Origin: Psammoneis japonica
Lineage: Eukaryota
Assembly (NCBI GenBank): GCA_008632985.1
Contig: QPGO01000136.1
Span: 1-64,000 of the forward strand
Length of the DNA: 64,000 bases
Reading direction: 5' to 3'
Shown here: positions 37,326-64,000 of the stretch, piece by piece
Layout: each line of letters begins with the position of its first letter
How positions within the stretch are numbered: the stretch's first letter is position 1
The notes under the pieces: model-generated
Databases searched by the model: none
What the model was told of the DNA's origin: nothing
The model's input: only the letters and a program-made list of their open reading frames with translations
Position numbers and translations under genes: made by a program

Positions 37326-40300
37326 ATGGTTCTCACCAGGCAACAACAAATCGATGGCCTTGAGCACATTCTAGGCACTGTTCTGAATCAAGCCACAGAC
37401 AGTCCATTGTGCTCCGCTCTCAACATTGATGGAACCGATTCACATCAGGACCTTTTTGCTTTTACTCCGACGCAACTGGATGCCCTTGTGCACAACGATG
37501 GCACCAATCAGAATCCCTTGCCAAGTGGTTACAAAGCACAGACAGCTGTGCTGATTAGCCTGCACATGGCAAAAGCGCGCGGCGGCGTGGATGTCAGCAA
37601 CAACCCTAAATTGTTCACTCACGAGGAGTTCACTGACTGTTGTCTTAGTCCTGAGCATGCAGCATCCCTCTCCATGGGCACAGCGCCATCTGCTCCCACC
37701 CCTGGCTCTTTGCCACCCAAACCACGTGACCCTGTGCGTGACTTTAAACGAGGCATCAAACGTGACCCACTCACCTTCGCGACTCTCAAGTCAGACAAAC
37801 AGTGGCACACGTGGCACACCTCCATCATCACACAGGCCCGCTCCCAGGATGTCGAACTCGTTCTTGATCCGACGCACAAGCCCTCTGCAGCTGAGGACAT
37901 GGCCCTGTTTGATGAACAACAGAAGTGCATGTTTGCCGTCTTCGAACAGATCTTGCAGAATGACAAAGGCAAGGCGCTTGTTTGTCAACATGTCGACTCC
38001 TCTGATGCTCAAGCGGTGTGTTGCGACCTTTCCAAGTGCGCCCTCACTTCCACTCGCGCATCCCTGGAGTCCTCGACCCTTCTCACGCACCTCGCCACTG
38101 CTCACCTCGGTGATGGCACCTGGAAGGGATCCACCCATGCCCCCATGCTTCACTGGCAGGACCAGCTCCGCAAGTGCGAAGCTCTCATCCTGGGTGCGGA
38201 CCATTTCTCTGCTGGCCAGAAACATGTCATGCTTGAGAACGCCACTCATCCTGTTGAAGAACTCCGTTTGGCAAAGAATCAAGCTGATCAGTTCCGCATG
38301 CAGAATGGAAAGGGTCTCTCTTGCGAAGAGTGCTGTGGACTTCTGCTTTCTGCTGCAGCACAGTGCAACAGCATGTTCACCCCCAAGACCACTCCTCATG
38401 CTCCACGCCGTGCCATCTACAAACATGACCTGGTTCCCAACGACCCTGACGATGATGCATTCTTCGACATCGACAGTGATGTTGACGTCATCCAAGCTTG
38501 TGCCGCACAGACCCGCGGCAACTCCCTCACCAGGGAACAATGGCGTCGCATTCCGCTGGACCATCAGCACATTTGGGACACCTTGCCCCAGTCCACCAAG
38601 GCCATCATTCTTGGCTCACGCAATGCCCACACCGGCAACTGCCATGACTCGACGATGGTCAACCTGCACGACCTCCGTCTTGGCAGCGACGGTGACGTCA
38701 ACTTGTCTGCCAACACCCATGACATTACATCGGCACTCGCACCATCCGACGCCACAGCCGATGCAGCTGATGCCAACCCCATTCTGGCTCATCTCATCAG
38801 GCACAAGCCCCTGCCACCCGGCAACTTGCAATGTCTCCTGGCACCTGAACGGCCTCCTTCCGCCCGTTCCGGCGAGAAACCGCCCGGATCTGCACCTTCG
38901 CCCGCTCCAACGCGAAGCCCATTGACGCTGACATTGAGATCAATGGCCACAAACACCATCGCGTCAACAACCACAATGTTGTCTGCTCTGCCTCGACCCA
39001 CAAGTCAACTCGCAAAGGTGCTCTCGTGGATCGCGGTGCAAACGGTGGCATTGCCGGTGATTGTGTTCATGTCATTGCCCACACTGGTCACCAGGTTGAC
39101 GTCCAAGGCATCGACGACCATCAACCAGTTGACATCCCCATTGTCACTGCCAGTGGTGTCATCTACATGCAATGCGGCCCTGCCATTGCCATCCTTCACT
39201 GGTGCGCCTGCACTGGAAAAGGGAAGACGATGCGCTCTTGTGGCCAGCTCGAGTGGTGCAAGCACGATGTCAACGATGGGTCCATCAAGGTCCCCAATGG
39301 TCTGCAGCGCATCACCACCATTGATGGATGCATCATTCCCATTGACGTTAAAGCCGGCCTCCCGCACATCACCATGCGCCCGCACACCAATGCCGAATGG
39401 GACACTCTGCCGCGCATGTCATTCTCACTGGTGATGACACATGGGATCCATCTGTCCTTGACCACCAGTTCACAGACAATGAGACATGGCACGATGCCAC
39501 GTCTGACCTCCAAGATGACCCGACTGCCAACCTCTTTGATGAGTTCAGCAACTGTCATCACCCCCATGTCGTCAACAATGCCATGCTTGCCGACTCCGTC
39601 CTTGATGATCACCTGCTCCCGACATCTGATTTCTTCTACGAATGCCATGAGCGCGAACTCAATCCCAAGGATCCTGATTTTGAGTCCCTCTGCACCCACT
39701 TTGGCTTTCTCCCGAAGGACACTGTTTGCCGCACTTTTCATTGCACGATGCAGCATGCCCACATGCCAGCCAGCACACACCTGAAAAAGGTGCACAAATT
39801 GCCCAACCCGGCTCTCAATGTCCACCAACGCAATGAACCCGTTGCTGCTGACACGGTCTGCTCTGATGCCCCTGCCATTGACTCTGGCTGCACCAGCGCC
39901 CAGCTCTTTGTCGGCATGCACCAAAACTGACAAAGAATTTGTCAACACCCTCAAAGACAACATTCGCACTCGCGGTGCCCCGTCCAAGCTCATCAGCGAC
40001 TGCACTCAGGTTGAGATCAGCAACAAGGTTCTTGGCATCCTTCGTGCCCTCTTCATCTCTAGTTGGCAAAGCGAGCCTCACCACCAGCATCAGAATTTTG
40101 CTGAACGCCGCTGCCAAACTGTGAAGACCATGGCCAACACTGTCATGGATCACTTCGGGTCCCCGGCTTGCACCTGGCTGCTTGCCCTGATGTGCATGTG
40201 TTTTGTGCTCAACCACACGGCGTCCACCAAGCTCCACTGGCACACCCCCACCGAAGTGCCATCCGGCTCTACTCCCAACATCAGCCCACTCCTCCACTTT

Positions 40301-42896
40301 CAATGGTGGGAACCCATGTGCTGCCACCTGGATGATTCTGACTGGCCATCCGAATCTCGTGAATTACGTGGTCGCTTCGTTGGCATCGCCGAACATGTTG
40401 GTCACCAAATGACATTCAAGATTCTTTCCGATGACACTCAGAAGATTCTCTGCCATTCCAACGTGCGCTCCGCCTGTGATCCGTCTGCTCCAAACCTGCA
40501 TCTTGATCCTCCTGATGAGAAATCTGCTGACCCTGTCATTAAATCCTGCCACGACTCCAAGGATTTGCCAGATTCACCAGATGGGGAGGTGACCAGGATG
40601 CCCAAAAATGCCGGTCTTTGACCCCGAGGACATCACAGGATGCACCTTCCTCATGAAGCCACAAGAGGATGGACAACGCCACAGAGCCCGCATCGTCAAA
40701 GCGGTTGAGGACCATGACTGGAAAATCGGAGGCAGTCCTGAACTGGTCAAGTTCATTTGCTCCGTCAACAATGACGAATGCAAGGAAGTCCCAGCTCACA
40801 ATGACATCATGCACCACATTGAGCAAGAAGACGAGGACACCACTCTCTGGAAGTTCTGACGCATCGCATCGCACGAAGGACCATTTCAACCCCATGATTC
40901 CTCATGGAAAGGCTCAAGCTACAACGTCATGCTTGAGTGGGAGAATGGGGAGATCACGTCCAAACCCCTTGCCATCATTGCCAAGGATGACCCCGTCACC
41001 TGTGCCATCTACGCGCGTGAGCACGGCCTTCTAGAAACCAAAGGATGGAGACATTTTTGCAAGACAGCACTTTGTCAGAAGAAGCCATTCTGCATGGCCA
41101 ACCAAGCCAAGTTGGCTCCTTTCGCACCGCGCCATGACACAAGTGCGGGTGTGAAGTGCCACGGGACTACAAGCATGCCATGGCCCTTGATGAGCGCAAC
41201 GGCAACCGCAAGTGGGGAGACGCAATGGACCTCGAGATGACTCAGCTTGATGAGCACGAGGTCTTCCACAACTGCGGACACCACGAGGATTCCAGTGCTC
41301 CATCAGGACACAAGAAGATCCGGGTGCACCTCGTCTACGATGTCAAACATGACGGACGGCACAAAGCAAGGCTTGTTGCCAATGGACACCTCACAGAAGT
41401 GCCCGTCGACAGTGTCTGTTCCAGAGAGGTGTCTCTCCGTGGCCTGCGAATGATGATCTTCCTGGCCGAACTCAATGAACTAGAGACCTGGGCCACTGAC
41501 ATTGGGAATGCCTGCCTTGAAGCTGCGACCAAGGAGAAACTGTACATTGTAGCAGGCCCCAAGTTCGGCAACCTGGAAGGACACATCCTTGTCATCCACA
41601 AGGCCTTGCATGGACTCCGCAGCTCCGGCCTCAGATGGCATGAATGCTTTGCCGATTGCTTGCGTGCCGAAGGCTTCTTTCCATGCAAAGCCGAGCCCGA
41701 CATCTGGCTGCGCAGGAATGGTGACCACTGCAAATGCATGGCAGTGCATGTGGATGACCTGGCCTTCGCCATGAAGGACCCCCAGGCTTTTGCAGACACC
41801 CTCATGGAGAAGCACAAGTTCAAGCTCAAGGGCACTGGACCATTGGAGTTCCATCTTGGCTGCGACTTCACCCGTGACCCAGACGGCACCCTGTGCCTTG
41901 CTCCCCACAAGTGCATCGAGCGCATGGTTGACAACTGCGTGTGCCTCTTTGGGGAGAAGCCCCGCACTGATGTGCTTTCACCCCTTGACAAGGGTGACCA
42001 TCCTGAGATCGACACCTCCGAATTGCTCAAACCAGACGGCATCCACCAGCTCCAATCCTTGATTGGATCCCTGCAATGGGCCGCATCTCCAGGTCACATT
42101 GACAATTGCTGTGGCTGTCATGTCCCTGTCTGGCTTTCGTGCAGTGCCCCGTCAAGGCCACCTGGACCATGCCAAATGCATCTGCGGATTCCTCTCCAAG
42201 ATGCGTCATGGTGCCCTCCAAGTGCGCACCGAGGAGCCCGACCATTCGGACCTCCCCAAGCCCGTGCATGACTGGGCTCAATCTGTGCATGGGGAGGCAG
42301 AAGAGCCACTCCTGCAAGATGCACCCAAGCCGCTTGGCAAGTTCGTCACCACCACACACTGCGTTGATGCGAACTTGTTCCATTGCGTGCTCACTGGATG
42401 CTCTGTCACCGGCATCCTCCATTTCCTCAATGAGTTTCCGGCTGATTGGTTCTCTAAGAAACAAGCAACAGTTGAGACTGCTGCACATGGATCTGAGTTT
42501 ATTGCCGCAAGGACGTGCATTGAGCAGATCATTGATTTGCGCATCACTTTGCGTTGCCTTGGCATTCCCATTCGTGAAACATGTTGCATGTTTGGGGACA
42601 ACAAGTCAGTTGTGGACAGTGCTGCCACCCCGCACTCCAAGTTGCACAAGCGACACACTGCCCTCTCATTCCATTGTGTGAGTGAGGCGATTGCCTCTGG
42701 TTTCCTTGAGTTTCATTTCATCGAAGGTTCCCACAACCCAGCTGACATCCTCAGCAAGCATTGGGGTTGCTCCCAAATCTGGAACCTCCTTTGTCCTCTG
42801 ATGTTTTGGAACTTCGATCCCGAGGCTTTCAACCAATCCGACTTCAAATCTGTCACTGTTGACCCCTCAAGCAAACTGGGGAGTGACAGGATTTGA
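37326..42896 (+). pseudogene. Mutated gag-pol polyprotein of element C
   Basis: gag (DFKRGIKRDP), protease (DRGANGGIAG), integrase (QSEPHHQHQNFAERR), RT (ATDIGNACLEA, KALHGLRSSG, AVHVDD) and RNase H (ETAAHGSEF, MFGDNKSVV, NPADILSKHWG). Contains frameshifts and stops. Confidence 0.92.
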
Positions 42897-43129
42897 ACAA
42901 GATTTTAGTTCATCACACATGATTGTGTGTGGTGCTCTTAGTTCCACGCGTCACGTGATGCAGTTTGCTTTTGAGCCACACAGCTCACAAGAATGACAAC
43001 AGCAGCGCCGATGTCATGACACCAGTCTTTTGGCTCCTGCAACGGTCTCTGCACGGAGACTCATCTGCTGTTTAGACAGCAGCAAGGAGTCATTGTTTGC
43101 TTCCACCCAGTCATCTTCATTTTCTGTCA
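42884..43129 (+). repeat. 3' LTR of element C
   Basis: Homologous to 36290-36534. Confidence 0.95.
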
Positions 43130-44065
43130 CTCTTGATGAGGCCCCCACACCCGCCAACAATGCCGAATCCCGCTGACTCCAAAACCAGCATGGCTTCTCC
43201 TGCTGCAAAGCCGCCAGTGAACTCACATGGGCCATGGTCACCACCCGCGTGGACCTGAGTTTTTCAATCACCAAGCTGAGTCAATTTGGCTCCAACCCTG
43301 GCTCCGCTCACTGCGAAGGTGTCAAGGAAGTGCTCCGTCATGCCCACCGACATCCAGACTTTGGCCTGACACACTGGCGCCCCTGCTCCAATGAGTCCCT
43401 GCCATGCGCACCCCCACTGCTGCCAGTCACCGCACTGCACAACTGGGTCACCCAACCACCACAGGCGGCTTCTCCCACAGAACTCACTGGATGCAAAGAC
43501 TCTGATTGGGCTGCTGACATCCGCCACCACCGCTCCATTGCTGGCACAGCCTTCCCACTTGCTGGCACCACCATTGCTTGGAAGACTCAAGTGCAACCCT
43601 CTGCACCCACATCACCCTTGGAAGCAGAATTCATTGCTGCATCGGGTGCTGGCAAGATGGCTCTGCACCTTCATTCCATCCTCGATGAACTGTCCCCGTG
43701 CCGCAAACACAGGCCACCCTCATCTGCACGAGGACAATGATGCATCCCGGATGATGGCCAATGCCAGCCAACCCACCAGATGGACCCGCCACATCGATGC
43801 TCATCATTTTGCACTGCAGGGTTGGGTCGAACAAGATCTTGTGCGAATGGAGCGGATTGACGCTGCCACGAACTGCAGCGACACACTCACCAAGAACCTT
43901 CCGCACATTCTTTTCTTTCAACATTTGGAGACACTCACTGGACGTCATCCCCCATCCTGTGTTTTAGATGGCAGCAACGATGCGCCACTGTGCTGTTCAC
44001 CAGAAGAACAATGCTCCCACAGTGGGCGGGCTCACAAATCTCCCAGTGTGTGTGGGGGGGGGGTC
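43130..44065 (+). mobile_element. Copia B continued (end of RT, RNase H, G-rich polypurine tract)
   Basis: Resumes with LDEAPTP...WAMVTTRVDLSFSITKLSQF, DSDWAAD, LEAEFIAASGAGKMAL, EDNDAS, TRHIDAHHFALQGWVE and NCSDTLTK. A G run lies at 44054-44063. Confidence 0.88.
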
Positions 44066-44109
44066 TCAGTGGCTGCGTGTTGTTCCCACATGGATGCAGG
44101 GATCTCTGT

Positions 44110-44184
44110 CAAGTTTGAGCGATTGCTCAAACTTGCGCAAGTTTGAGCAAATGGGGGTGCAAGTTTGAGCAATTGCTCAAACTT
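44110..44184. repeat. Cluster of AAGTTTGAGC half-sites forming two palindromes
   Basis: AAGTTTGAGCgattGCTCAAACTT at 44111-44134, a single half-site at 44139, and the perfect 24-bp palindrome AAGTTTGAGCAATTGCTCAAACTT at 44161-44184. Confidence 0.9.
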
Positions 44185-44773
44185 TTAGTGGTGAAAGCCA
44201 AGACAGGAAACCTCAGTCATGACCGTTAAAGTTTACTGTGTGTGGTGTTCGCTCATGTCCGTTGGGATTCCGCGCACGCCCGCGTTTGAGCAGTTTTCCC
44301 TCATGCGATGGTGCTGCACGCACGCTGCAGAACTCCCTGTCCATCCATCCGTACATGCCGTAGAATAGAGTTCGCGATGATTCTGTAGGAAAACCTCTCT
44401 ACTGCTCTAGCTAGAGAGTCAGTAGAGAGTAGTAGTAGATGTCCAACGAAATTTTATGTGCAGTTGGTCGCAGCTGGCTGTCGTCTTCAGTCTGCCATAG
44501 CTGGCTAGAGTGGCCACTCAATCCCACAGTAGGCCATTGCTCAGAAACGTTATGGCATATGATAGCTACCTGGGACCATCCATGACCAACAAAAGTGACC
44601 ATGAGCGTCGGTTGACACGGCGCATGCATACAAGTAAGCTCTTAGCATCCCTACATGGACTTGCGAGGAAAGTATTTGGGTGACAGTATGTCCTCTCACA
44701 AGGGTACGAGATGGGAGTGGCAATGCTTGTGAGACAGACATCACCCACTAAGGACTTGATGGAATGGTATCTG

Positions 44774-49288: not shown

Positions 49289-49775
49289 GGTTGAGTGATC
49301 AGAGCAAAGGATTCCAACAACTAGTAGCTCTAGTTGGGCTGCGAATATAAGTCGTCAAGCATGAATAGAGTTTCGCGTTTCAGCTTTTCTTTTTCCCGGT
49401 GGTAGGCAGGGGGGAGTGTGCATCCCGCCCCTTCCGTGGCCGTGAGGAGTGAGTCGTCGCATGTAGACTAAGGTACTGTACACGGTACGTAGGTGTTTAT
49501 CGTGAACGCACACCACCTACATACAGTATGATATGGTACTATACCGATGAGGGGGGCTACCCCTCACGTATCATTAGTGATGATGCCATTTTCAATTTAA
49601 AGCACCACGCACCACAGCAATATTAACACAATGTGAACACGGGCGAGATGGGGATGATGCTTCCTGCGAACAGACAGTAGCTTGGAGACCCAATGGGCGA
49701 CGGTGGCTCACAACCAACAGATGATATTCAACTAATAAAGCACTACCGACGAGCAACGGAGACTATCTATCAAGA

Positions 49776-51834
49776 ATGTTTCGCCGCAAGACTGCTTCAT
49801 ACATGGGAGATATTCTCACTCACACCACCCATGCTGTGCTCCAACCAAGAGCACAAGTCGTAAGGCGAATACCGACAAGCCACGGAATGCGCTTCGCTGT
49901 TACGAGTGGACAGCATGTCCCTACCAGGAGCTTCAGTACAAATAATATCAAATCATTCGGCAAACCGCCGCATCGCCAGCAGAATACCAAGGGGAAGCAT
50001 TGGAGAATGCCAATGTTCAAAAACCTCAATAGGGTTTCAGATGTGCTCGACATATATAAGTCCAACGGGTCACGAATGATTCCGAAAGACATTTCACTTT
50101 GTTGGAACCGTATTGCCACAATCGTATCGAGCAGCAGCAAAGAGCGAAACGAACTGCGAAAAAGAAGTCGCGATATCCAACGCTTGCTGGTACGAACCAT
50201 GAAGGATATTGACAGCTTCGACCCCGCACCGCTAGCGTCATCGATACACGGTCTCGCCAAAATGTCGGATGCTTGCAGGTACAAAATAGACCGGAAAGTA
50301 TGGGACGATTTGGAACACAGAACGATCCTTGTTTTGGATGACATGTCCCCAAGGGAAATTTCCAACATTACTTGGGCATTTGCAAAGGCTCGTCATACGA
50401 CCAACGCTTTGTTTGACATGGTGGCTCAAGCCTCTGTTCCAAAGATTCGCATGTTCAATCCTCAAGACCTTTCCAACATGGCTTTGGCATACGCAATAGT
50501 GGGACTCTCATCGCCAGTCCTGTTTGACGCAATAGCCGACGCATCTCTGAATCGGTTGGATACGTTCAAACCGCAAGCGCTTTCCAACATGGCATGGGCA
50601 TTTGCCACCGTCGGTCATCCAACGCCGAAACTTTTTGATGCCATTGCAGAGGCAGCAGCTTCACGGATAAACAGCTTCAAGCCGCAACAGCTGTCAAACA
50701 CGGCATGGGCGTATGCCACCATGGAACATTCAGCGCCGTTGCTTTTTGATGCGATAAGTAATGCAGCAGCAACTAGAATCGAGAGTTTTGACCCTCAAGC
50801 CCTTTCAAATACGGCATGGGCTTTTGCTACCGTTTGTCACTCAGCACCAGTACTTTTCGATGCCATTGCTGATTCGGCCGTAACAAGATTGGATACGTTC
50901 GACGCACAAGCGATTGCGAACACGGCGTGGGCATACGCTACCATGAATCACTCAGCGCCTTTGCTTTTTGATGCCATAGCTGAGGAATCAGTATCAAGAT
51001 TGGACAGTTTCAACCCCCAAAACCTAGCAAACACCGCATGGGCTTTTGCTACCTTTCGATATTCGGCGCCGTCGCTTTTTGATGCTATTGCTGCCCAAGC
51101 TATATCAAGGTTGGATGACTTTAGTCCACAAAACCTAGCCAATACAGTATGGGCCTACGCTACTGCTGGGCACTCTGCACCGTCGCTTTTTCATGCTGTA
51201 GCCGAGGCGGCGGTGTCGAAATTGGACAAGTTCACCACGCAAAACCTCGCAAACATGGTGTGGGCGTACGCGGTTTGTGACCAATTCAGTGAAATTCTAT
51301 TGGGAGATCAATCACCCTATATCAAGGCCTTCAACCCAAAAGCTTCCTATTTATCTGCACAGCATTTGAGCCAACTCCATCAAGTTCACCTTTGGTGTCT
51401 TGAGCATGGACGTTCGCTGCCGCTTGATTGCGGCTTACAACAGAAGTGTCGAGACGCTTTTGTTGAACAACAAGGCAATCCATCCAAGCTGCAAAAGGAT
51501 GTTATCAAGACTCTTTCGGACCTTGGACTCGACCCAAAGGAAGAATTCCGAATGGGTATAGGCTACAGCTTGGATGCAGTAGTTAGGTATCGCAATCGAG
51601 ACGTCGCCGTTGAAGTGGACGGACCAAGCCACTTTCTTTCTGATCGATCCCCGACAGGGTCTACGATTCTAAAACGATCGCCAGCTTGCGAGATTGGAAA
51701 ATTACAGTGTGGTGTCGGTGCCTTATTGGAAATGGAATGCTGTTGCAAAAAGGGGCACGAATTCAGAATCAGTTCGAGAATTGCGTAAAAAGTACTTGTT
51801 GGAGATCCTAGATCAAGCGACTGTGAAAACTTAG
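49776..51834 (+). CDS. HPR/OPR-repeat RAP-domain protein, copy 2 (9 repeats; frameshifting in the last ~150 nt)
   Basis: ORF 49776-51788 has a transit-like N-terminus, 37-aa repeats and the RAP motif VAVEVDGPSHF. The paralog-like C-terminus LRKKYLLEILDQATVKT* ends at 51834 in another frame. Confidence 0.9.
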
Positions 51835-51911
51835 GTTGGAAAAAAAAGAAAAACGAAGGGTTGTCTATCAGCTTCTCTCTACCGCACAATGATGCAAAAG
51901 AAACGTTTGTA

Positions 51912-52088: not shown

Positions 52089-53260
52089 TGTAGGCGAGAA
52101 TTTCTCTCTCGTAGGACTTGCAATTCTTGCTCAAATCAAACTGCTTCACCGCGTTCTCTTTTCCTTTGACGCACACCTCAAAGATGTCGCCATTGCGGCC
52201 GGTGGCCAAATGCCTTTTGTCGCATAAATCCTCAAAAGGGACATGAGGGACAAAGTCCTGCTTCACCAATGCAAAGTGCATCCCAAAGATTGACTTCGGG
52301 GTCTCCATTCTCTCGAGATTTGGTGAAACTGTCTCTTGAAGGTCATTGCCGTCGAACGATGTGACTCTCTTGGATGCCACACTCGCTTGTTGGATGTCTT
52401 GAAGCATTTGCCAGGAATGCATCTGACAAAAAAGACCCCAGCAACCATTCTTTGTTGTCTTTTTGGACCCAGTGCTGTCAGCTTCATCATCATTTTCATT
52501 CTCATCGCCATCGCCACCATCAGTGTTGTCATCCCCAAGTGGGGACAGGCGCTGCTCTGCTTTGTGCTTGGGTTTTTGGTTTTGAAACACATCCATCACT
52601 GCATCTTGTCATGATGTTGCCACCAGCTGCACTCAGAATCAAGAGGTTGTGGCCAGCTTTTGCTTCCACCATCAGTGCTGGAAGAACATTGCCAACCCCT
52701 GGATCCTCTGATTCTTGCACACAAACAATGTGTCACGAAGACCCACAACTGCAACTTCGCCAGCCATGCACGCTTGGAGAGGTTCCCAAACAGTGTCTGT
52801 CAAGAGTGCTTTTTTCATTTTTTCATCACACATGCATCCATTGTGGGAAACAGATCTAGAGATTGAATCTGGAACATTTCCTGCAACATGACCACCTGTG
52901 ATTCCAAAGGGTTTGTCGAGCATCTGCTCTGGCAGGTGGTGTCGACCGCTTCTCTGCTCCTTCATCTCGCTGCAAGCAGACACCTTTCCAATGAAAAATC
53001 ACAGTGGTGAGACAGATCTGCTGACACTTCTTCTTGTGTCATGCACCATGACAAGGGAACATTGGATCTCATCTCATCAACAAACTGTTTTCTTTTCACA
53101 TGCCAGCAAGCATTTCTGGCTTTGTTTTCCTCAGCAGCAGTCCACTGCAGCTCAGCACTTGAAGGATCACAAAACTCTTTCGAAAAGACATCACATTCCT
53201 TCATGCCATCAATCTTCTGTTTCAAAGCTTGTGCAGCCATTGCTGCGTCCATCCGTGCTG
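52089..53260 (-). pseudogene. Second copy of the kinase-like pseudogene, TpA-depleted
   Basis: FEDLCDKRHLATGRNGDIFEVCVKGKENAVKQFDLSKN and AQALKQKIDG match 6200-7733 in inverted orientation. Confidence 0.7.
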
Positions 53261-53415
53261 TGTGCCATGGTGAATCCAAAATCAAAATTTTGCCGCGGGG
53301 TTGGTGTTTTTGTGCAAAAGTGTGCAAAAGGTGAGTTCTGTCACATGACGGTGAGAGAGACTTTGATCACAGCCTCTTTGGCAATGAGAGTTGCTCAAGA
53401 ACAGAGCTGTCACCA

Positions 53416-56218
53416 ATGATGCTGTCCTCGAGAGCTTCCATGTACACTGGCTGTGGGTTTCGACAAAGGGCCGCAACAAAAGTGGGAGTCGTTCTCGTCC
53501 ATCCCATCCAACTGGTGTCACTGCCAAATTCCAGTGGCATTGCAACTCGACAACTGCCATTGAGCCACAAGATGTGGCGCATTGTTTTGACTGGACGACA
53601 TTGCCGGACTGGGAGCTCTGCTGATGATTCGTTCAACTTCCCACAGAAACAAAAGAAGAAAAAGCGAGTTCAATGGAGGCCACCAAATTCAAACAATCTC
53701 AACAGGGTTTCACAAGTGCTGGACGTTCATGAGGCTCACAGGGCAAAAATGAGCCCAAGAGATGTTTCAATGTGCTGGAACTGCATTTGCAAAATTACAT
53801 TGCACAACAGGCAAGAGCAAAAAAGCATTTGAGAGAACGAGCAGCAGCTGCGGTGCCTGATCGAACATTCTGCTCAGACCATCAGAGGCTTTTGCAACAA
53901 GTTGCTTGCAATGGCTGTTCACAGCATCTCCAAAATGTCAAAAATGTGCAGGTGCACAATGGACCGAGATGCATGGAACGCTTTGGAGGAGAGAACACTT
54001 TCTGTTTTGTGTGACATGTCTCCAACAGACATTTCCAAAATTGCGCGGGCATTTGCCACGGTTTGGCATGCGTCAAAGACATTGCTTGACAAGGTTGCTC
54101 ATGTCTCTGCTGCAAAGACGAGCAACTTCAGCCCTCAAAGCCTGGCGAACACGACGTGGGCCTGTGCCACAGTTGGACACTCAGCACCGTTGCTCTTTGA
54201 TGCTGTTTCCAAAGAAGCAATGCCAAGATTGGGCACTTTCAACCCTCAAGCAATGGCGAACACAGCATGGGCCCATGCCACAGTTGGACACTCAGCTCCA
54301 TTGCTTTTTGATGCCATTGCTGAAGAAGCAAAATCAAGCTTGAGCAGCTTCAACCCTCAAGTGACAGCAAACACGGCATGGGCCTTTGCCACAGTTGGAC
54401 ACTCAGTGCCGTCGCTCTTTGATGCTGTTGCTGAAGAAGCAATGCCAAGATTGGACAATTTCAACCCTCAAGACACAGCAAACACGGCATGGGCCTGTGC
54501 TGCCGTTGGGCACTTGGCACCGTTGCTTTTCGATGCTGTTGCTGAAGAAGCAAAATCAAGCTCAAGGTGGCACGAGACGAAAATTGTGAAAATCGTTTTC
54601 GCGCGCATTTTCATTGAAAATCACAGGAATCAGGAATCTGTCATCAGACAAAAGCATTGTGTCTTGTCAGCGAATCACATGGGTCAGCATGCGCGCGATT
54701 GCAAGTGTGTCGCTCAACGGAAATTCCGTTTTGGCGAATCGCTCATTTGTTGCCTCGTTCTCTGTGTCGTCTTTGAAAGGCCATGAAAGGCACTTCCAAG
54801 ACGAAAACACTTGTGAATTCAAGCATGCAGACACTTCTCTGCTGTCTCAGCTTCCTGCCGAGTGAAAGAAACTGCACCTTTTGACACTTTTTCCTGTCCA
54901 AGCATCTAATTCAAAAACTCAGGGCGAAAAACCAGGACCTTTCTTTTGCTGACAGGAACATCTTGTTGACACAATCTCGAAACTTGCAGTTTCTTTCCAC
55001 AGGCAAGTCAAGGAGACACCAACTGAGAATGCAGGACACTTGGTTGAAGGAAACGCAGCATTTGACAGCGTCCTGGGACAAGCCGAAGTGCGGCCATCGC
55101 TTTGTGTAGAAATGTGTAGAAATCACACCAGAAAAAATTCCAAACAATTTTCGTCTCGTGCCACCTTAAACCATTTCAGCCCTCAAGTGATTGCAAACAC
55201 GGCATGGGCCCATGCCACCATTGGGCACTTGGCCCCATCACTTTTCAATGCTGTTTCCACAGAAGCAATGCCAAGGTTGGACAATTTCAATCCTCAAGAC
55301 ATGTCAAACACGGCATGGGCACATGCCACTGTTGGTCACTCGGCGCCGTCGCTCTTTGATGCCATTGCTGAAGAAGCAATGCCAAGATTGGACAATTTCA
55401 ACCCCCAAGACATGTCAAACACGGCATGGGCCAATGCCACTGTTGGACACTCAGCGCCATTGCTTTTTGATGCCATTGCGGAAGAAGCAATGCCAAGATT
55501 GGACAATTTCAACCTGCAAGACACAGCAAACACGGCATGGGCCCACGCCACAGTCGGACACTCGGCCCCGTCACTTTTTCATGCCGCAGCTGAAGCAGCG
55601 GTGTCAAAATTGGGCAGTTTCACCCCGCAAGGCCTTGCAAACATGGTGTGGGCGCACGCGGTTTGTGACCAATGCTGTGACATTTCAATGGGAGATTCAT
55701 CGCCGTTTGCAAAGGCCTTCAGCTCAAATGCTGCCTTTTTGTCTGCAGAGAATTTAGGGCAACTCCATCAAGTGCGCCTTTGGTGTCTTGAGCATGGAAG
55801 TTCGCTGCACCTTGATTACAACTTACAACAGAGGTGCCGAGCGGCTTTTGTTGAAAAACAAGGCAATCCATCCAAGTTGCAAAAGGATGTTGTCAAGACT
55901 CTTTTGGACCTTGGACTCGACCCAAAGGAAGAATTCCGGACAGATGTGGGTTACAGCTTGGATGCAGTGGTCAGGTATCGCAATCGAGACGTCGCCGTTG
56001 AAGTGGACAGGCCAAGCCACTTTCTTTCTGATCGATCACCGACTGGGTCTATGATTCTAAAACATCGCCAGCTTGCGAGATTGGAAAATTATAGGGTGGT
56101 GTCGGTGCCTTATTGGGAGTGGAATGCTGTTGCAGAAAAGGACTCGAATACAAAGTCAGTTCGAGAATGGCGCAAAAAGTACCTGTTGGAGATCCTCGAT
56201 CAAGCGATTGAAAGTTAG
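53416..56218 (+). pseudogene. HPR/OPR-RAP copy 3 (10 repeats): hypermutated, with a nonsense codon and a MITE insertion
   Basis: The N-terminus matches copy 1 (MMLSSRAS...). CGA->TGA stop at 53830-53832, Y->H/C and I->M/T changes throughout, an insertion at 54566-55165, and the RAP motif changed to EVDRPSHF. Confidence 0.9.
54566..55165. mobile_element. 600-bp non-autonomous DNA transposon (MITE) with perfect 22-bp TIRs and a TTAA target; Kolobok-like GG...CC ends
   Basis: GGTGGCACGAGACGAAAATTGT (54566-54587) and ACAATTTTCGTCTCGTGCCACC (55144-55165). Flanks are TCAA (54562-54565) and TTAA (55166-55169). A corresponding repeat in copy 1 reads TCAAGCTTAAAC without an insertion. Confidence 0.92.
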
Positions 56219-56914: not shown

Positions 56915-59531
56915 TCAATCGTGCGATGCACGGGACAGACACTCCAGCAAATACTTTTTGCGCCATTTCCTACCGGACTTCATGGACGAATCTTTTCCCG
57001 ACACTGCATCCCATTCCCAATACGGAACTGACAAAAGAGTGTAGTCTTCTAGTTTCGAAAGCTGGCGACATTTCAATTTGGTGGACCCATTTGGTGATCG
57101 ATCATTGAGAAAGTGATTAGGCCCGTCCACTTCTATACCGACCTTCGTCCCTTGGTAAGTCACAACTGCGTCAAGGCTGTACCCGATACCGGTGATGAAT
57201 TCTTCCTCCACTTGAAGCTCCAGCTCAGACAGTGTATCTACCACATCCTTTTGCAGTTTCGAAGGTTTCCCTTGTTCCGCCACAAACGCTTCATGGCATT
57301 TTCGGGGAAATTCTGAATCGAATTGCGCGGGAATATTGTGTTCTTCAAACCACAACTGAACTTGATGGAGTTGAGATAGAGGTTCCGCTGAAAATAACGA
57401 AGCTTCTGAGTTACAGATTTCAATGAATTTTTCGTCGTTGAGCAACTTGTCACATCGATGGTCACAAACAGCATACGCCCAAGCTGTATTGGAAAGTTCT
57501 TGAGGTATGAATCTATCCAACTTCGGTATGGATGCTTTAGCAATTGCATCAAAAAGTAACGGCGACACGTGTCCAGCAGTTGCAAAGGCCCATGCTGTAT
57601 TTGCAAGGTTTTGGGGGCTGAACGTGTCCAATTTTGATATCGAAGCGTCAGCAATGGCATCAAAAAGAGGTGGTGTAGAGTATCCAGAAGTTGCAAAAGC
57701 CCAAACCAAATTGGCGAGTTCCTGGGGTTTGTACTCATCCAATTTCCCTATCGATGCGTGAGCAATGGCATCAAAAAGTAATGGTGAAGCATGCCCAATG
57801 GTTGCGAATCCCCATGCTGTATTGACCAGGGCCTGGGGAGTGAACTTGTCCAAATTCAGTATTGATTCGTTTGCAATTGCGTCAAAAAGCAACCTCGATG
57901 AGTGCCCAACGGTCGCAAATGCCCATGCTGTATTGGAAACTTCTTGGGCTTTAAATCTATCCAATATTGGTACGGATGCTTTGGCAATGGCGTCAAAAAG
58001 CGACGGCGCCGAGTGTCCGAGAGTAGCAAATGCCCATGCTGTATTGGAAATTTCTTGGGGTATGAATCCATCCAACTTCGGTACGGATTCTTTAGCAATT
58101 GCATCAAAGAGCAACGGCGACACGTGCCCAGCAGTCGCAAAAGCCCATGCTGTATTGGCAAGGTTTTGGGGGCTGAACGAATCCAATTTCCGTATCGAAG
58201 CGTCAGCAATGACATCCAAAAGAGGTGGTGTAGAGTATCCAGAAGTTGCAAAAGCCCAAACTAAATTGGCGAGTTCTTGGGGTTTGTATTCATCCAATTT
58301 CTCTATTGATGCGTGAGCAATTGCATCAAAAAGTAATGGTGACGCATGTCCAATAGTTGCATATGCCCATGCCGTATTGGTAAGGGCCTGGGGAGTGAAC
58401 TTGCCCAAATTGCGGATTGATTCGTCAGCAATTGCATCAAAAAGCAACGACGACGGATGCTCAGCGGTCGCAAACGCCCAAGCTGTATTGGCAAGGGCTT
58501 GAGGGGTGAAATTAGCCAATTTCTGAATTGATGCATCAGCAATAGCATCAAAAAGTAACGGCGAGGAATGTCCGATAGTTGCATAAGCCCAAACTAAATT
58601 TGCGAGTTCCTGGGGTTTGAACTCATCCAACATCCCAATCGATGCGTCAGCAATTGCATCAAATAGCAGAGGCGATGAATGACCAATAGTGGCGTATGCC
58701 CAAACTGAATTTGCGAGTTCCTGGGGCTTGAACGTATCCAATTTCTGAATCGATTCGTCGGCAATTGCGTCAAAAAGCATCGGAGACGCATGTCCGGCGG
58801 TTGCAAAAGCCCAAGCCGTATTGGATAGGTTTTGGGGGATGAACTCGTTTCTTTTTTGAATGGATGCAATTGCCAAGTAGTTGAAAAGCTTATCGGAGGG
58901 ACGCCCAACTTTTGCGAAAGCCCATAAGGTCCTTGATATATCTGCTGGAGTGAGATCGCAATTTGTACCAAGCACTTGTGCCTCCAAACCATCCCAAACT
59001 TCAAGCCCTAACTTTAGCCTGCTACTGTGGATATCTTTGCAAGGCTATTCGCAGTTGAGCCAAGCGATTTCGGTGGAAACGTGTCTAAAACTTGAACGGT
59101 GTGTTGCAGTAGTCGTTGTATCGCTTTTTCGTTGCTTTGAACGTTCATTCGCTCGGTTGTATTTCTTGAAATGATTGCTGCGATGCGATTCCAACAAAGT
59201 GAGATGTCCCTGGGTTCATTTTATCGCTGTGGGCTTTGTGCAGATCAAGCACAACCTTGACTCTGTCGATTGTTCGAAGATTAGGTAGCCTCCAACGTTG
59301 GGTTTTGTTGCGGCTGCGACTTCGCGTTGGTGCTCTTGATGCAAGAGTTGGTCGTTCACTTTTCCTGCCACCATCGTTGCCTGGACCACGTGCATTCACA
59401 TGTGTTGTTGCAAATGCCATCTGCCTGTGAGAACTGTGCCAAAGATCATGGTGGATTGCAGAATGTCGGCAGCTTGGCGCCATTCCAACAACAACGGTGC
59501 GGGCAGACATGAAACGCCGCTGCGCTTTCAT
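56915..59531 (-). CDS. HPR/OPR-repeat RAP-domain protein, copy 4 (14 repeats; frameshifts at about 58990-59210)
   Basis: ORF 56915-58987 carries the repeats and VGIEVDGPNHF...SVPYWEW. An upstream frame carries the family N-terminus WRLPNLRTIDRVKVVLDLH. The start at 59531 is inferred. Confidence 0.88.
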
Positions 59532-61760: not shown

Positions 61761-62018
61761 CCAAGCACAGGGGAACCGACCCACGGCGGACAGATGCCGG
61801 TTCATCCGACGCCCGACACGCGCATGCAACGAGCGCAATACGAACGACAACGCCGCCACATCATCACGACGACATTGAAGCTAGCCGACTGCAGATGTTG
61901 TAGCCCTACCGGTATGTTCGATGCGGCTGCTTCGAAATGATGGACAACGTGTGGTAGTCTCACCTTCCTATTTGCCAGCTAAACAACAACACTCTCGACG
62001 GAGACTGCATCAACAGTC

Positions 62019-64000
62019 ATGTGGTGTTCAAGAGCCTCATTGTCAAACAGCTTAAGGATCCGCCGAAAGGCTGCTTCACACGTTGGTGCTGTTTGCACTC
62101 ACCCCGCCATCCGAGAGGCTTTACAACCAAGAACTTTTGTGGGGAGGCGAAGCCCGATAAACCAAGGACAACTTCGTGGTTTTACGAGTGGACAGCAAGT
62201 CCTTACTAGAATACAAACAACTGGCTCCACTCATGATCCGCAAAATCAGCAAAAGAAGAGAAGTCGACGGAAAATGCCAACGTTGAAAAAACTGAACAGG
62301 GTTTCTGATGTGCTCGGCATACACAAGTACAAAGAGACGAAAATGAGCCCTAAAAATATTTCACGTTGCTGGAGCCGTATTGCCACAATCGTATCTCGCA
62401 ACGAGCAAGAGAGAGCAGAATTGCGACGAAGAAGTCGAGATGTCCAACTCTTACTGCAGCACACAATTCATGAAATCAAAGAATTTGGGGCCGACCCCCT
62501 GTCGTTGTTGGTACACAGTCTCGCCAAAGTATCGATTAGATGCAGGTACAATATAGACAGAAAAGTATGGCGCGTTCTGGAACATAGAACGGTTGTTGTT
62601 TTGGATGACGTTGACATGTCCCCGAGACGGATTTCCAACGTTGCTTGGGCATTTGCAAAGGTTCGGTATAGGTCGACGGCATTATTTGACAAAATTGCTC
62701 AAGCATTAGTTCCGAAGATGAGCATGTTCAATCCACAAGACCTTTCCAATCTGGCTTTGGCATACGCAACTGCCGAACACTCAGCGCCACTACTCTTTGA
62801 TGCAATAGCCGATGCATCTCTAGAACAGTTGGACAAATTCAATCCGCAGGACCTTTCAAACATTGCGTGGGCATTCGCAGCTGCCGGTCACACTTCTCCT
62901 TTACTTTTTAACGCTATCGCCGACGCGTCGCGAGATCAGTTAGATGACTTTGCGCCACAGAATCTATCCATCATGGCGTGGGCGTTTGCCTCTGCCGGAC
63001 ATTCGGCGCCGACACTTTTCGGTGCCATTGCAGGCGCAGCACTGCCAGTGATACACAGCTTCAACCCGCAAGACCTTTCCAACATATTATGGGCATATGC
63101 AACCATCGGACAGCCGTCTCCTTTTCTCTTTGATGTCATTGCGAAAGCTGCGCTACCTCAATTGAATAGGTTCAACCCGCACAACCTAGCAAACATAGCA
63201 TGGGCATATGCAACCGTCGACCGCTCGGCACCGTGGCTATTTAATGCCATTGCCGAGTCTGCACTCCCAAGGATAGACAGTTTTGATCCTCAGGCACTTG
63301 CTAAAATGGCATGGGCTTGCGCTACGGTCAAGCACTCGGCACCGCCACTCTTCGATGGCATAGCTGGCGTGGCAATATCTAGATTGGACCATTTCAGCCC
63401 TCATGCCCTTTCCAATATGGCATGGGCATATGCTACTGCTCGACATTCAGCCCCGTTGCTCTTTGACGAAATGACCAAGACAGCAAGAGCAAGATTGGAC
63501 AGTTTCACCCCCCAAAACCTATCAATCATGGCATGGTCGTATGCTGCCGCGGGACATTCTGCGCCCTTGCTCTTTGACGCCATGGCTGATGCAGCGGTAT
63601 CTCGTTTGGATAGCTTCAGCCCACAAGATCTCTCACACTTATTGTTGTCCTTTGCAAATGCCGGACACTTGGTTCCGTCACTTTTCGATGCCACCGGCCA
63701 TGTAGTACTCTCGAAATTGGACGATTTCAATGCCCAAGAACTTTGTGATGTTCTTTGGGCGTTTGCCGTTTGTGACCATCCCTGTGAAAGTCTAATGAAC
63801 GATAATGGATCAAGCTTTACCAAAGCATTCAATGCAAACGACGCATTCCTTTCTTTGGATGCCTTGATTCGACTGCACCAAGTTCACCTGTGGTGTCTCG
63901 AACATGGCAGTAGTTCGCTACAGCTTGATTTCGAGTTACAAAAGAGGTGTCTAGATGCTTTTGTGGAACAAAGAGAAAAGCCATCCGAGTTGCAAAAGGA
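62019..64000 (+). CDS. HPR/OPR-repeat RAP-domain protein, copy 5 (11 repeats), running off the window end
   Basis: Hand-translated from the ATG at 62019: MWCSRASLSNSLRIRRKAASH...MPTLKKLNRVSDVL...FNPQDLSNLALAYATAEHSAPLLFDAIA...HQVHLWCLEHG. It is absent from the ORF track because there is no stop in the window. Confidence 0.9.
   Translation, partial: MWCSRASLSNSLRIRRKAASHVGAVCTHPAIREALQPRTFVGRRSPINQGQLRGFTSGQQVLTRIQTTGSTHDPQNQQKKRSRRKMPTLKKLNRVSDVLGIHKYKETKMSPKNISRCWSRIATIVSRNEQERAELRRRSRDVQLLLQHTIHEIKEFGADPLSLLVHSLAKVSIRCRYNIDRKVWRVLEHRTVVVLDDVDMSPRRISNVAWAFAKVRYRSTALFDKIAQALVPKMSMFNPQDLSNLALAYATAEHSAPLLFDAIADASLEQLDKFNPQDLSNIAWAFAAAGHTSPLLFNAIADASRDQLDDFAPQNLSIMAWAFASAGHSAPTLFGAIAGAALPVIHSFNPQDLSNILWAYATIGQPSPFLFDVIAKAALPQLNRFNPHNLANIAWAYATVDRSAPWLFNAIAESALPRIDSFDPQALAKMAWACATVKHSAPPLFDGIAGVAISRLDHFSPHALSNMAWAYATARHSAPLLFDEMTKTARARLDSFTPQNLSIMAWSYAAAGHSAPLLFDAMADAAVSRLDSFSPQDLSHLLLSFANAGHLVPSLFDATGHVVLSKLDDFNAQELCDVLWAFAVCDHPCESLMNDNGSSFTKAFNANDAFLSLDALIRLHQVHLWCLEHGSSSLQLDFELQKRCLDAFVEQREKPSELQK

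Follow-up and report, generated by a model that had tools for sequence, protein, structure and literature searches.

Does a process that removes TpA dinucleotides from transposon-rich DNA also strike ordinary host genes, and what sets its limits? These questions are raised by a 64,000-nucleotide stretch of Psammoneis japonica contig QPGO01000136.1 (hereafter the window), whose genes have diatoms as their best named relatives and which contains five TA-poor domains with TA o/e of 0.02-0.12, compared to 0.554 elsewhere. One of these domains holds a copy of a host gene, designated copy 3, whose paralogs in the same window provide the means to follow the process base by base. The coordinates of the features discussed here are collected in Table 1.

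Copy 3 and its paralogs

Copy 3 belongs to a local five-gene family of the RNA-binding-protein type, in which a C-terminal RAP domain follows FAST-type helical repeats. RAP or FAST_1 matches were also obtained by Pfam for copies 1, 2 and 4, and homologs in other organisms fall under PF08373 and PF06743. Copy 3 is a dead member of this family because it carries a CGA to TGA change at 53830, the sole premature stop in its frame, and a 600-bp MITE, with the 604-nt insertion shifting the frame. Its closest paralog, at 84% identity, is copy 1, which the original prediction had put forward as an intact control. As a compositional control copy 1 is valid, with a TA o/e of 0.4-0.7, but its intactness is not borne out in the assembly, where it shows three changes of frame, all within its repeats. 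Copy 2, which served as outgroup, has a frameshift at G 51676, a base missing from a contig of run X1. In copy 4 the first Met occurs only from about residue 88, and a search for N-terminal homology in this copy found none. The 111-nt tandem repeats of copies 1, 2, 4 and 5 show no sign of TA loss.

Table 1. Features of the window, with positions on the forward strand.
Feature	Position	Strand	Description	Evidence
Copy 3	53416..56218	+	RAP-domain/FAST-type 37-aa-repeat gene, now a pseudogene	Pfam RAP E=8.2e-12, FAST_1 hits
Copy 1	3508..5914	-	TA-normal, closest paralog; 3 frameshifts as assembled	RAP E=1.3e-11
Copy 2	49725..51911	+	TA-normal paralog, outgroup	
Copy 4	56915..59044	-	TA-normal paralog, convergent with copy 3	709 aa open, RAP and FAST_1 hits
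Copy 5	61983..64000	+	TA-normal paralog, runs past window end	
Premature TGA, in frame	53830..53832	+	CpG>TpG change	CGA at the same place in copy 1
MITE, 600 bp	54566..55165		Within coding repeats	Exact 21-nt TIRs, 24 nt with flanking AA/TT
Target-site duplication (TSD)	54562..54565; 55166-55169		Left TCAA; right TTAA	Read from sequence
TA-poor domain holding copy 3	52113..55754		CG-reduced, CA/TG-rich	8 TA in 3642 nt
Right edge of TA loss	55746..55755		Within copy 3	Last lost TA 55746, first kept TA 55755
Upstream unit	52089..53400		Duplicated with the gene; single copy by depth	Homologous to 7733-6208; contig depth about 70
TA-free core adjoining copy 1	6699..7539		Homologous to part of the copy 3 upstream unit	0 TA in 841 nt
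TA-poor domain, 15 kb	28985..44185		Nested Copia-type elements	61 TA in 15201 nt, o/e 0.072
Copia element	36290..43129	+	TG..CA LTRs	LTRs 36290-36534 and 42884-43129

Extent of the TA-poor domain

Copy 3 was correctly described as TA-poor, but the start proposed for the depleted stretch, 53416, is too far downstream, as the domain begins 1.3 kb further upstream. At the density of non-domain DNA, 137.2 TA would be expected in this domain (Poisson 8e-48); its TA o/e is 0.033 and its CG o/e 0.53, compared to 0.554 and 0.94, respectively, outside the domains, and CA and TG reach 1.69 and 1.62. The edges fall between the TA dinucleotides at 52112 and 52225 on the left and between those at 55167 and 55755 on the right. 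Across the TA-poor domains, CA/TG o/e rises to 1.6-2.0 and GC is equal or higher. Per base, loss at TpA exceeds the background by a factor of about 23 or more, the figure being a minimum since the sites are saturated.

A similar picture could arise if a long-read base-caller misread modified TpA and CpG bases in heterochromatin and the errors became fixed in the assembly, since a map of modification would give sharp domains, and at least one indel in the window, the G at 51676 mentioned above, is doubtful. Such an artefact is nevertheless extremely improbable. Contigs of run X1 (k-mer depth about 60-70), whose independence from the assembly is presumed, have the same TA-free sequence and reproduce 53204-54330 with no differences; the X1 contig over 51677-53233 has three differences from the window. 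A CA/TG difference between window and X1 contig, possibly allelic, lies at 53025-53026. The changes also act like inherited substitutions, in that paralogs, LTRs and the TSD differ in their choice of CA or TG, and copy 3 has a stop codon and a MITE as well. Additionally, the same signature is carried by an environmental protein (P0329) and a contig (L040) that are unrelated.

Spectrum and direction of TA loss

In the aligned blocks of copies 1 and 3 (53403-54560 and 55174-55750), copy 1 contains 57 TA, of which copy 3 has lost 55. At these 57 sites copy 3 has TG (26), CA (20), AA (6), TA (2), TT (2) or CC (1), such that 46 of the 55 losses are to TG or CA and nine are not simple transitions. 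The process is strand-symmetric (26 TG vs 20 CA, p=0.46), and flanking bases had no effect on the choice between TG and CA in copy 3 (p=1.0, p=0.19).

When the changes were polarised with the remaining copies, they proved to be specific to TpA and to have arisen in copy 3. For the 3' part copy 2 served as outgroup: the poor zone has 28 TpA bases, and 13 of them carry a change specific to copy 3 (T>C or A>G in 12 cases); none carries a change specific to copy 1 or to copy 2, and background changes were equal (27 vs 30). The 5' part was polarised against copies 2 and 5. Here copy 3 acquired 7 changes at TpA, 15 at CpG and 35 elsewhere, and copy 1 acquired 0, 3 and 28, respectively; 40 further sites lacked polarity. 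A>G and T>C changes outside TpA were not raised in copy 3 (14 of 35, vs 10 of 28 in copy 1). Strict orthology does not hold between the repeat units of copies 1 and 3 (the first unit has TGT in copy 3 and TTT in copy 1, for instance), and this inflates the background in the repeat region. These observations bear out the proposal that a host gene copy was hit by directional TA>CA/TG change, and the TA-targeted process therefore also strikes ordinary host DNA.

Consequences for the encoded protein

The strings on which the original prediction was built are all present where it placed them. TGGGCCTATGCCACAGTTGGACAC is the reverse complement of 4909-4932 in copy 1. In copy 3, TGGGCCTGTGCC lies at 54157 (it also occurs once in copy 1, at 4146 on the minus strand) and TGGGCCCATGCC at both 54268 and 55205. 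GCAATACCAAGA occurs six times in copy 1 and never in copy 3, and GCAATGCCAAGA four times in copy 3 and never in copy 1; GATATA (Asp-Ile) of copy 1 is found as GACACA (Asp-Thr) and GACATG (Asp-Met) in copy 3. Had His, Cys or Met been ancestral at the repeat positions, the proposed direction would have been wrong. The variable residue of the WAxA motif in 120 homologs (967 residues) is Phe in 474 cases, Tyr in 434, Cys in 15 and His in 4; eight of the nine units of copy 3 show Cys, His or Asn there. Homologs in other organisms thus bear Phe or Tyr at the positions altered in copy 3, and that objection fails.

It follows from the genetic code that loss of TpA removes TAA and TAG and produces missense changes only (Tyr>His/Cys, Ile>Met/Thr/Val), degrading proteins without truncating them. 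The TpA process had been credited with the ability to kill paralogs; since TpA>CpA/TpG makes no stop codons, the death of copy 3 is not due to it, the stop being a product of CpG decay and the frame having been broken by the MITE. The suggestion that the process diversifies host paralogs is likewise without support, as copy 3 is dead. TTAA sites are also destroyed by TpA loss, including the target duplication of the MITE itself.

CpG decay in the domain

CpG decay acts in the TA-poor domain as a second process alongside TA loss. In the same aligned blocks, the 83 CG of copy 1 are represented in copy 3 by CG (35), CA (23), TG (21) and others (4). Between 53392 and 55450, CpG>TpG/CpA changes were found at 41 of 71 sites, compared to 12 of 41 in the reverse direction (p=0.006), and beyond 55451 the change is symmetric between directions. 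The excess of CpG decay stops near 55450, about 300 nt short of the TA edge, and therefore no single boundary is common to both processes. In the diatom P. tricornutum, about 6% of the genome is reported to be methylated and CG to be the most mutable dinucleotide (PMC6604790). The decay of CpG in methylated transposons gives the same excess of CG>TG/CA as seen here, but explains only a minor part of the pattern and cannot remove TA.

The right edge of TA loss within the gene

TA had been reported to reappear inside the gene after about 55750, and it does so at 55755. All six copy-1 TA aligned to 55596-55746 are lost and all three between 55755 and 55824 are kept; 2 of 57 are kept to the left of the boundary vs 9 of 19 to the right (Fisher p=2.7e-5). 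The masked identity of copies 3 and 1 is 73/76 and 75/80 left of the edge and 79/81 right of it. Gene conversion is excluded as the origin of the TA edge by this identity, which is level across 55574-55873. Farther downstream, at its 3' end, copy 3 turns mosaic and is nearer to copy 2 from about 55975 on. A joint of 51308 with 55853 was set aside as paralog cross-matching, one of its sides being only 34 nt long. The process thus reaches non-transposon DNA and stops mid-gene, as claimed, at an edge within a block of uniform copy 3-copy 1 ancestry. Since it ends inside a host gene without a change of ancestry, its limits appear to be set by position and not by sequence origin, which makes the question of targeting testable.

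This edge also bears on whether the 5' 2.3 kb of copy 3 stem from RNA or cDNA that underwent ADAR- or APOBEC-like hyper-editing, or were introduced by gene conversion with a decayed copy elsewhere as donor. The preference of ADAR for a 5' U (bioRxiv 10.64898/2026.01.13.699255) and the mosaic 3' end of copy 3 would agree with such an origin, which we regard as very improbable given that ancestry does not change at the TA edge. Furthermore, the strand directions are interleaved along copy 3 and a single edited strand cannot yield both, the intergenic upstream unit was hit as well, it was after insertion that the LTRs and the TSD came to differ, and with a contig depth of about 70 there is no sign of a second copy at 90% likeness.

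Action in place on transposons and duplicated DNA

That the process worked on DNA already in place is shown by the Copia LTR pairs, the duplicated flanks and the TSD of the MITE, each of which has diverged through CA/TG choices. The LTRs of the Copia element in Table 1 differ by 23 events, of which 14 carry the signature (6 CA/TG doubles, 6 CG vs CA/TG and 2 TA vs CA/TG) and 9 are other. RVT_2 was identified by Pfam at 41138-42268 (E=8.8e-25), and nothing but RVT_2 was found over 55 ORFs of the TA-poor domains. In the Copia RT, His or Cys occupies 13 of the 15 conserved-Tyr columns. Amongst 80 related environmental Copia loci, collected with search patterns that disfavour decayed copies, none had a TA o/e below 0.2 and one had a TA-free, CG-free stretch. 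Copia elements, the MITE, the host RAP gene copy and the single-copy upstream unit have all been hit.

The upstream unit, which had been called a kinase relic, had no Pfam hit, nor did a kinase match emerge at E up to 5, and kinase clusters at 0.95 in the ESM Atlas are a lead only. It is part of a duplicated segment of about 4 kb in which 52089-56188 matches 7733-3508, and the TA-free core adjoining copy 1 differs from the copy 3 side by 17 CA/TG double mismatches in 607 aligned nt.

RIP, which needs duplicated DNA and hits both copies, converts CpA to TpA, yields an AT-rich product and creates stop codons. A RIP-type process, in which the duplicated segment was recognised by homology and mutated, would fit the position of the left edge of the domain (52113-52121), no more than about 30 nt away from where the duplication starts on that side, and the independent decay of the upstream unit in both copies. 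We consider this quite improbable, as the gene part of copy 1 has no polarised TpA changes vs near-saturation in copy 3, the domain stops about 440 nt before the duplication ends, the tandem repeats in the four other copies have been spared, and the chemistry runs opposite to that of RIP. Neither hallmark of RIP was found: the TA-poor domains lack C>T at CpA with TpA excess and AT enrichment, and the duplicate copies are not both mutated over their full length. In this locus TA is removed, no stops can arise and just one of two gene copies is hit. What the process does share with RIP of ascomycetes is a regional, dinucleotide-specific transition hypermutation that disables repeats (PMC2621366, PMC7296669).

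The MITE and the spread of TA loss

The MITE is multicopy, with a summed contig depth of about 300-600 vs 60-70 for single-copy DNA (about 5-10x), and a scan for its TIRs across metagenome contigs gave no matches. Set beside a piggyBac-type MITE, it has TIR ends GG..CC and the TSD TCAA/TTAA, the TIR ends being unlike the CCC..GGG of piggyBac. Since the two copies of a TSD are identical at insertion, the TTAA>TCAA (TpA>CpA) change postdates the arrival of the element. The MITE looks younger than most of the TA and CpG decay: it keeps 3 TA in 600 nt vs 2 in about 1740 nt of flanking gene, its CG o/e is 0.89 where the surroundings have about 0.4-0.5, and its perfect TIRs retain four of four CpG.

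These features are relevant to the model implied by the original prediction, in which recognition of the MITE (or of the upstream unit) as foreign set off a mutating state that moved outward into a copy 3 still alive at that time. The element is multicopy and sits mid-gene, the TSD change places activity of the process after its insertion, and elsewhere in the window the TA-poor domains contain Copia elements as well as a repeat with a depth of 837-2824, all of which would favour spreading. Nucleation by the MITE is nevertheless doubtful and the model as a whole rather unlikely, because the element appears to be younger than most of the decay, the domain extends 2.45 kb to its left but only 0.59 kb to its right, TA loss shows no gradient with distance, and the homologous unit next to copy 1 is TA-free with no MITE there.

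Proposed mechanism and comparison with known systems

The explanation that we consider likely is that copy 3 lies in a silenced, probably cytosine-methylated domain exposed to a TpA-directed DNA-modifying or deaminating activity, and that what is targeted depends on the domain and not on where the DNA came from. TpA>CpA/TpG change on both strands, in place and near saturation, has destroyed about 96% of the ancestral TA, and a weaker CpG>TpG/CpA decay, also on both strands, has affected about 58% in the same 3.6-kb block. Both signatures fill every transposon-rich stretch of the window (37% of it), for which reason the block is read as a silenced chromatin domain, probably cytosine-methylated. 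Transposons, the MITE, the upstream remnant and the host gene copy have all been hit, and the activity stops within 10 nt, at 55746-55755. The chemistry could be deamination of adenine at TpA, the proposal made for Bigelowiella, where an ADAT2-like deaminase is a candidate, or it could involve a modified thymine that mispairs. A mechanistic lead for the latter is 5-hydroxymethyluracil, which has a preference for TpA and could in principle give T>C at TpA. In dinoflagellates, algae of the SAR group, marking by this base has been tied to transposon silencing (PMC11572971); the literature covered gave no evidence that diatoms have it and described no mutational footprint of it.

The closest known system is that of Bigelowiella natans, in which de novo TpA>TpG/CpA mutations were found in mutation-accumulation lines, confined to two regions (Mettrop et al. 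2026, bioRxiv 10.64898/2026.01.13.699255). The same preprint describes TpA-depleted, CpA- and TpG-enriched clusters rich in reverse-transcriptase and DDE domains, with some likely host domains amongst the depleted genes. In both B. natans and this locus the changes are region-bound, consist almost entirely of A>G and T>C at TpA, and leave TpG or CpA depending on the strand. However, B. natans is a chlorarachniophyte with integrated viral DNA in which the process was measured directly, whereas here it is deduced from paralogs in a diatom-like genome. Depletion at this locus is near-complete (o/e 0.03), compared to a Rho of 0.45 for the B. natans NCLDV insert, and it is accompanied by CpG decay, which the preprint does not report. 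This locus is further set apart by the host paralog, within which the TA loss ends at a 10-nt edge.

Implications

Regional TpA hypermutation has so far been reported once, in the 2026 chlorarachniophyte preprint, and no diatom report of it was found in the literature searched; this locus adds a second, distant lineage. It constitutes a natural experiment with internal controls, in which paralogs, LTR pairs and the TSD give the spectrum, strand symmetry, near-saturation and action in place of the process. On the practical side, TA-free DNA has no TAA or TAG, so gene-finding programs will report long ORFs within such domains that are spurious.

As a tentative generalisation, one for which we see a real but less than even chance, diatoms, and perhaps SAR algae generally, may possess an 'anti-RIP' defence. 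Guided by chromatin domains and blind to the difference between transposon and host, it would convert TpA to CpA/TpG on both strands jointly with CpG methylation decay, may prefer RTAY over YTAR, and would erase TATA-like and TTAA motifs and Tyr and Ile codons without creating stops, its edges (10 nt or less) marking heritable silent chromatin. If the process holds true in both a chlorarachniophyte and a diatom-like genome, it would be ancient and not lineage-specific.

Source genome and the RAP paralog family

The window is eukaryotic and contains few introns. Among the matches listed, the closest named relatives of a NO66-type oxygenase ORF (8826-10085, minus strand) are pennate diatoms (Cylindrotheca, Amphora, Fistulifera, Epithemia, Seminavis and Nitzschia; 52-59% identity), the best unnamed matches reach 65%, and the RAP-domain genes match diatom and haptophyte proteins at 30-50%. 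Identity was at most 65% throughout among the 120 matches listed for each of these queries. On sequence grounds, we call the source genome diatom-like.

The gene family has five paralogous members, which encode RAP-domain proteins carrying 37-residue FAST-type repeats. A segmental duplication of ~4 kb (3508-7733, inverted, versus 56188-52089) holds copies 1 and 3 and takes in ~1.3 kb 5' of the gene. From ~55975 on, copy 3 resembles copy 2 more than copy 1, and its 3' end is a mosaic. Over 55975-56300, which covers the end of copy 3 and its 3' flank, identity is 88-93% to copy 2 versus 76-86% to copy 1, opposite to the pattern in the remainder of the gene. The RAP paralogs have exchanged or replaced 3' ends. 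Elsewhere in the window, a PIF1-type helicase-like ORF (23145-25439) carries a 305-nt internal tandem duplication (94% identity, 23500-24122) that repeats an N-terminal protein segment.

RAP/FAST-type repeat paralogs and TA-poor domains in the window
Feature	Coordinates	Strand	Description
Copy 1	3508-5914	minus	RAP/FAST-type repeat paralog
Copy 2	49725-51911	plus	RAP/FAST-type repeat paralog
Copy 3	53416-56218	plus	RAP/FAST-type repeat paralog
Copy 4	56915-59044	minus	RAP/FAST-type repeat paralog
Copy 5	61983-window end	plus	RAP/FAST-type repeat paralog
TA-poor domain	1-1952		sharp bounds
TA-poor domain	6699-7539		sharp bounds; next to copy 1
TA-poor domain	28985-44185		sharp bounds; nested Copia-type elements
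TA-poor domain	52113-55754		sharp bounds; contains affected part of copy 3
TA-poor domain	59715-61476		sharp bounds; high-copy repeat

Directional loss of TA in copy 3

The original prediction held that a directional TpA process had reached a host gene copy. The strings it quoted are all present where it placed them, and the claim itself was borne out by the loss from copy 3 of 55 of 57 copy-1 TA, by changes polarised to copy 3 and by signs of action in place. Over the colinear blocks 53403-54560 and 55174-55750, these 57 TA correspond in copy 3 to TG (26), CA (20), AA (6), TT (2), CC (1) and retained TA (2), and the 83 copy-1 CG to CA (23), TG (21), other dinucleotides (4) and retained CG (35). 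The TG and CA outcomes are interspersed and balanced (26 vs 20, p=0.46), so both strands were targeted; no effect of flanking bases on the outcome was seen in copy 3.

Changes in the 3' part were polarised with copy 2 as outgroup. Of the 28 TpA bases shared by copies 1 and 2, 13 are altered in copy 3 alone (T>C 7, A>G 5, T>A 1), equivalent to ~13 of 14 dinucleotides, and neither copy 1 nor copy 2 had any such change in the TA-poor zone of this part. The background at other sites was equal (27 changes in copy 3, 30 in copy 1). With copies 2 and 5 as outgroups for the 5' part (~60% identity), copy-3-derived changes numbered 7 at TpA, 15 at CpG and 35 elsewhere, versus 0, 3 and 28 for copy 1; polarity was not resolved at 40 sites, 12 of them at TpA. 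The TA loss of copy 3 is genuine and very far from random.

At the WAxA position of the repeat, successive units of copy 3 carry C, H, F, C, H, H, N, H and H, and the other four copies carry Y or F, save a single C in copy 1 and another in copy 5. That His, Cys or Met might be ancestral, the case named against the original prediction, fails at this position, where 120 homologs of other organisms have mostly F or Y (F 474, Y 434, L 30, C 15, H 4 of 967).

Contigs of X1, a sequencing run compared with the window, reproduced 53204-54330 with no differences and 51677-53233 with three. Their even depth (~60) and kilobase-scale length suggest that X1 consists of short reads. As X1 may be the window's own source sample, this agreement argues against assembly or consensus error more than it gives fully independent support. 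At 53025-53026, within the TA-poor domain, the X1 contig has TG and an inserted G versus CA in the window. Such a difference is as expected from independent TA loss on two haplotypes and would point to recent activity, or could be an alignment effect.

Borders of the affected block

The process was also correctly predicted to stop mid-gene. Rightward along copy 3, all copy-1 TA are lost as far as 55746, TA is present again from 55755 (55755, 55817, 55824), still inside the gene, and about half are kept farther right (2/57 kept left of the edge vs 9/19 right of it, p=2.7e-5). Beyond the edge, copy-3-specific TpA changes (5) are no commoner than those of copy 1 (3) or copy 2 (3). The right border is therefore a step, with no gradient. 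A recombination junction at the edge was ruled out by the level identity of copies 3 and 1 on both sides once TA and CG columns were masked (73/76 and 75/80 adjoining on the left, 79/81 on the right); the switch in copy 3 ancestry toward copy 2 lies at least 130 nt past the edge. The left edge of the domain falls between 52112 and 52121, ~30 nt within the left end of the duplication.

TA-poor domains and CpG decay

Observed/expected (o/e) values for the whole window (TA 0.39; CA/TG 1.40/1.42) hide two states. The five TA-poor domains sum to 23,398 nt (37% of the window), with TA o/e 0.00-0.07, CG o/e 0.24-0.53 and CA/TG o/e 1.6-1.9, versus 0.554, 0.94 and 1.21/1.24 in the other 40,602 nt. TA-free runs extend up to 1,538 nt, compared with a median TA-to-TA gap of 19 nt, and the domain containing part of copy 3 has 8 TA against 137.2 expected (Poisson 8e-48).

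The 15-kb domain of nested Copia-type elements has 61 TA in 15201 nt. Decay is weaker in its younger Copia element (36290-43129; TA o/e 0.12, CG o/e 0.63) than in its older part (28985-36289; 0.04 and 0.14), and TA loss here seems to have been faster or earlier than CpG decay. The uneven CG o/e among domains that all nearly lack TA, together with two related environmental Copia loci (L011, L015) that over their whole length are CpG-poor (o/e 0.1-0.3) and normal in TA (about 0.5), makes the two processes separable. Within 53392-55450, 41/71 copy-1 CG sites have TG or CA in copy 3, versus 12/41 in the reverse direction (p=0.006); past 55451, neither direction prevails. CpG decay is thus elevated in the TA-poor block of copy 3, yet far from saturation, and stops ~300 nt short of the TA edge.

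Among the 78 TA surviving in the five domains, YTAR is enriched (TTAA 12 vs 2.5 expected; CTAA/TTAG and CTAG also) and RTAY is almost missing (ATAT 0, with 108 in non-domain DNA; ATAC/GTAT 1; ATAG/CTAT 1). The process may prefer certain flanking bases. The high-copy repeat domain, which adjoins the 5' end of copy 4, has numerous internal deletion joints and a summed X1 contig depth of 2824 (60009-60675) and 837 (60676-61342), with single-copy DNA at ~55-70.

Long overlapping ORFs occur in several frames on both strands in 29000-44000 and 52100-55750 (e.g., 37110-39434, 37555-38925 and 37791-38615), as TA-free DNA lacks TAA and TAG. Only 1 of 55 open frames of TA-poor stretches had a Pfam family, and gene finders would over-call in such DNA.

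Action in place and targeting

Four independent lines of evidence place the origin of the changes where the DNA now sits. The two LTRs of an element are identical at insertion, so CA in one and TG in the other is as expected where one ancestral TA or CG was resolved differently in each; the Copia LTRs (36290-36534 and 42884-43129) differ at 29 positions, representing 23 events (6 such CA/TG doubles, 6 CG vs CA/TG, 2 TA vs CA/TG and 9 other). The unit upstream of the gene is TA-free next to both copy 1 (6699-7539) and copy 3, and 17 CA/TG doubles in 607 aligned nt, plus 7 in a further 458 nt, indicate separate decay after duplication. The Copia reverse transcriptase has His or Cys in 13 of the 15 columns with Tyr in at least 60% of 120 homologs. 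Finally, the target-site duplication of the MITE in copy 3 is TCAA at the left end and TTAA at the right end, which shows that the process went on after MITE insertion.

Spreading of the process from the MITE, as the original prediction implied, is doubtful. Although multicopy (summed contig depth ~300-600 vs 60-70), the MITE has a CG o/e of 0.89, more TA (3 in 600 nt vs 2 in ~1,740 nt of the gene around it) and perfect terminal inverted repeats of 21-24 nt with 4/4 CpG intact. It probably entered copy 3 after most of the decay there had taken place. At 90% likeness, the upstream unit occurs once (depth ~70); a Pfam search gave no family, and a very high-scoring ESM-Atlas match to kinase fragments is a lead alone. 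Given the younger-looking MITE and a single-copy unit that is TA-free beside both gene copies, we favour positional, domain-type targeting over MITE spreading or homology-triggered targeting.

State of the gene copies

Copy 3 is a dead gene. It carries an in-frame TGA at 53830 (CGA in copy 1), and the MITE (54566-55165, 600 bp) with its 4-nt duplication puts it out of frame. TpA loss cannot make a stop codon, and none arose among the 57 codons it altered in copy 3; 16 of these changes are synonymous, and the amino-acid replacements include I>V 7, I>M 6, Y>C 3, Y>H 2, V>A 3 and T>A 4. The suggestion that the process kills paralogs did not hold, as CGA>TGA and the MITE account for the death of copy 3; that it diversifies them is unsupported, copy 3 being dead.

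Copy 1 is not the intact paralog it was taken for, since its repeat units lie in three frames, with a fourth shift in the last unit. The deletions lie near 4405, near 4129 (in a C run) and between units 4629 and 4519; these frameshifts may be assembly errors. As a control for composition, copy 1 still serves well. The sole frameshift of copy 2, a G at 51676 near the RAP domain, is missing in the only X1 contig spanning the site, which could be allelic or paralogous. The window may hold single-base assembly errors, or the 51676 locus may be heterozygous. In copy 4, the open frame has no Met before ~residue 88, and N-terminal homology was not found.

Comparison with known systems

The signature is opposite in direction to RIP. 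In P. tricornutum, the part of the mutation-rate study covered gives CG as the most mutable context, with a GC>AT bias (PMC6604790). In the main texts covered, no report of such a TpA process in diatoms was found, and the portions covered of a diatom retrotransposon paper do not mention one (PMC2806351).

Metagenome contigs were scanned with a Copia reverse transcriptase alignment, yielding 80 loci; the patterns included Tyr/Phe positions and so were biased against decayed copies, and the results are leads rather than frequencies. With these patterns, TA o/e was below 0.2 in 0/80 loci (median 0.73, minimum 0.33). One of these loci, on a marine contig (L040, 1-3974), has TA o/e of 0.23-0.30 over most of the element and then a 400-nt bin (3201-3600) with 0 TA and CG o/e 0.06, after which the DNA abruptly turns normal. 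Additionally, 11 of 21 conserved-Tyr columns hold His or Cys in one of 120 reverse transcriptase homologs (P0329, ENA-derived). Other marine eukaryotes may undergo the same process.

The signature of copy 3 and the domains matches hypermutation in Bigelowiella natans mutation-accumulation lines, as described in the part of the preprint covered (bioRxiv 10.64898/2026.01.13.699255). Two virus-derived regions carried 231 mutations in those lines, of which 230 were A>G or T>C and lay at TpA, and TpA-depleted, CpA- and TpG-enriched clusters were enriched in reverse-transcriptase and DDE domains; its authors proposed an ADAT2-like DNA adenine deaminase. In its signature, the process described here is of the same kind as that of Bigelowiella, now in a second lineage.
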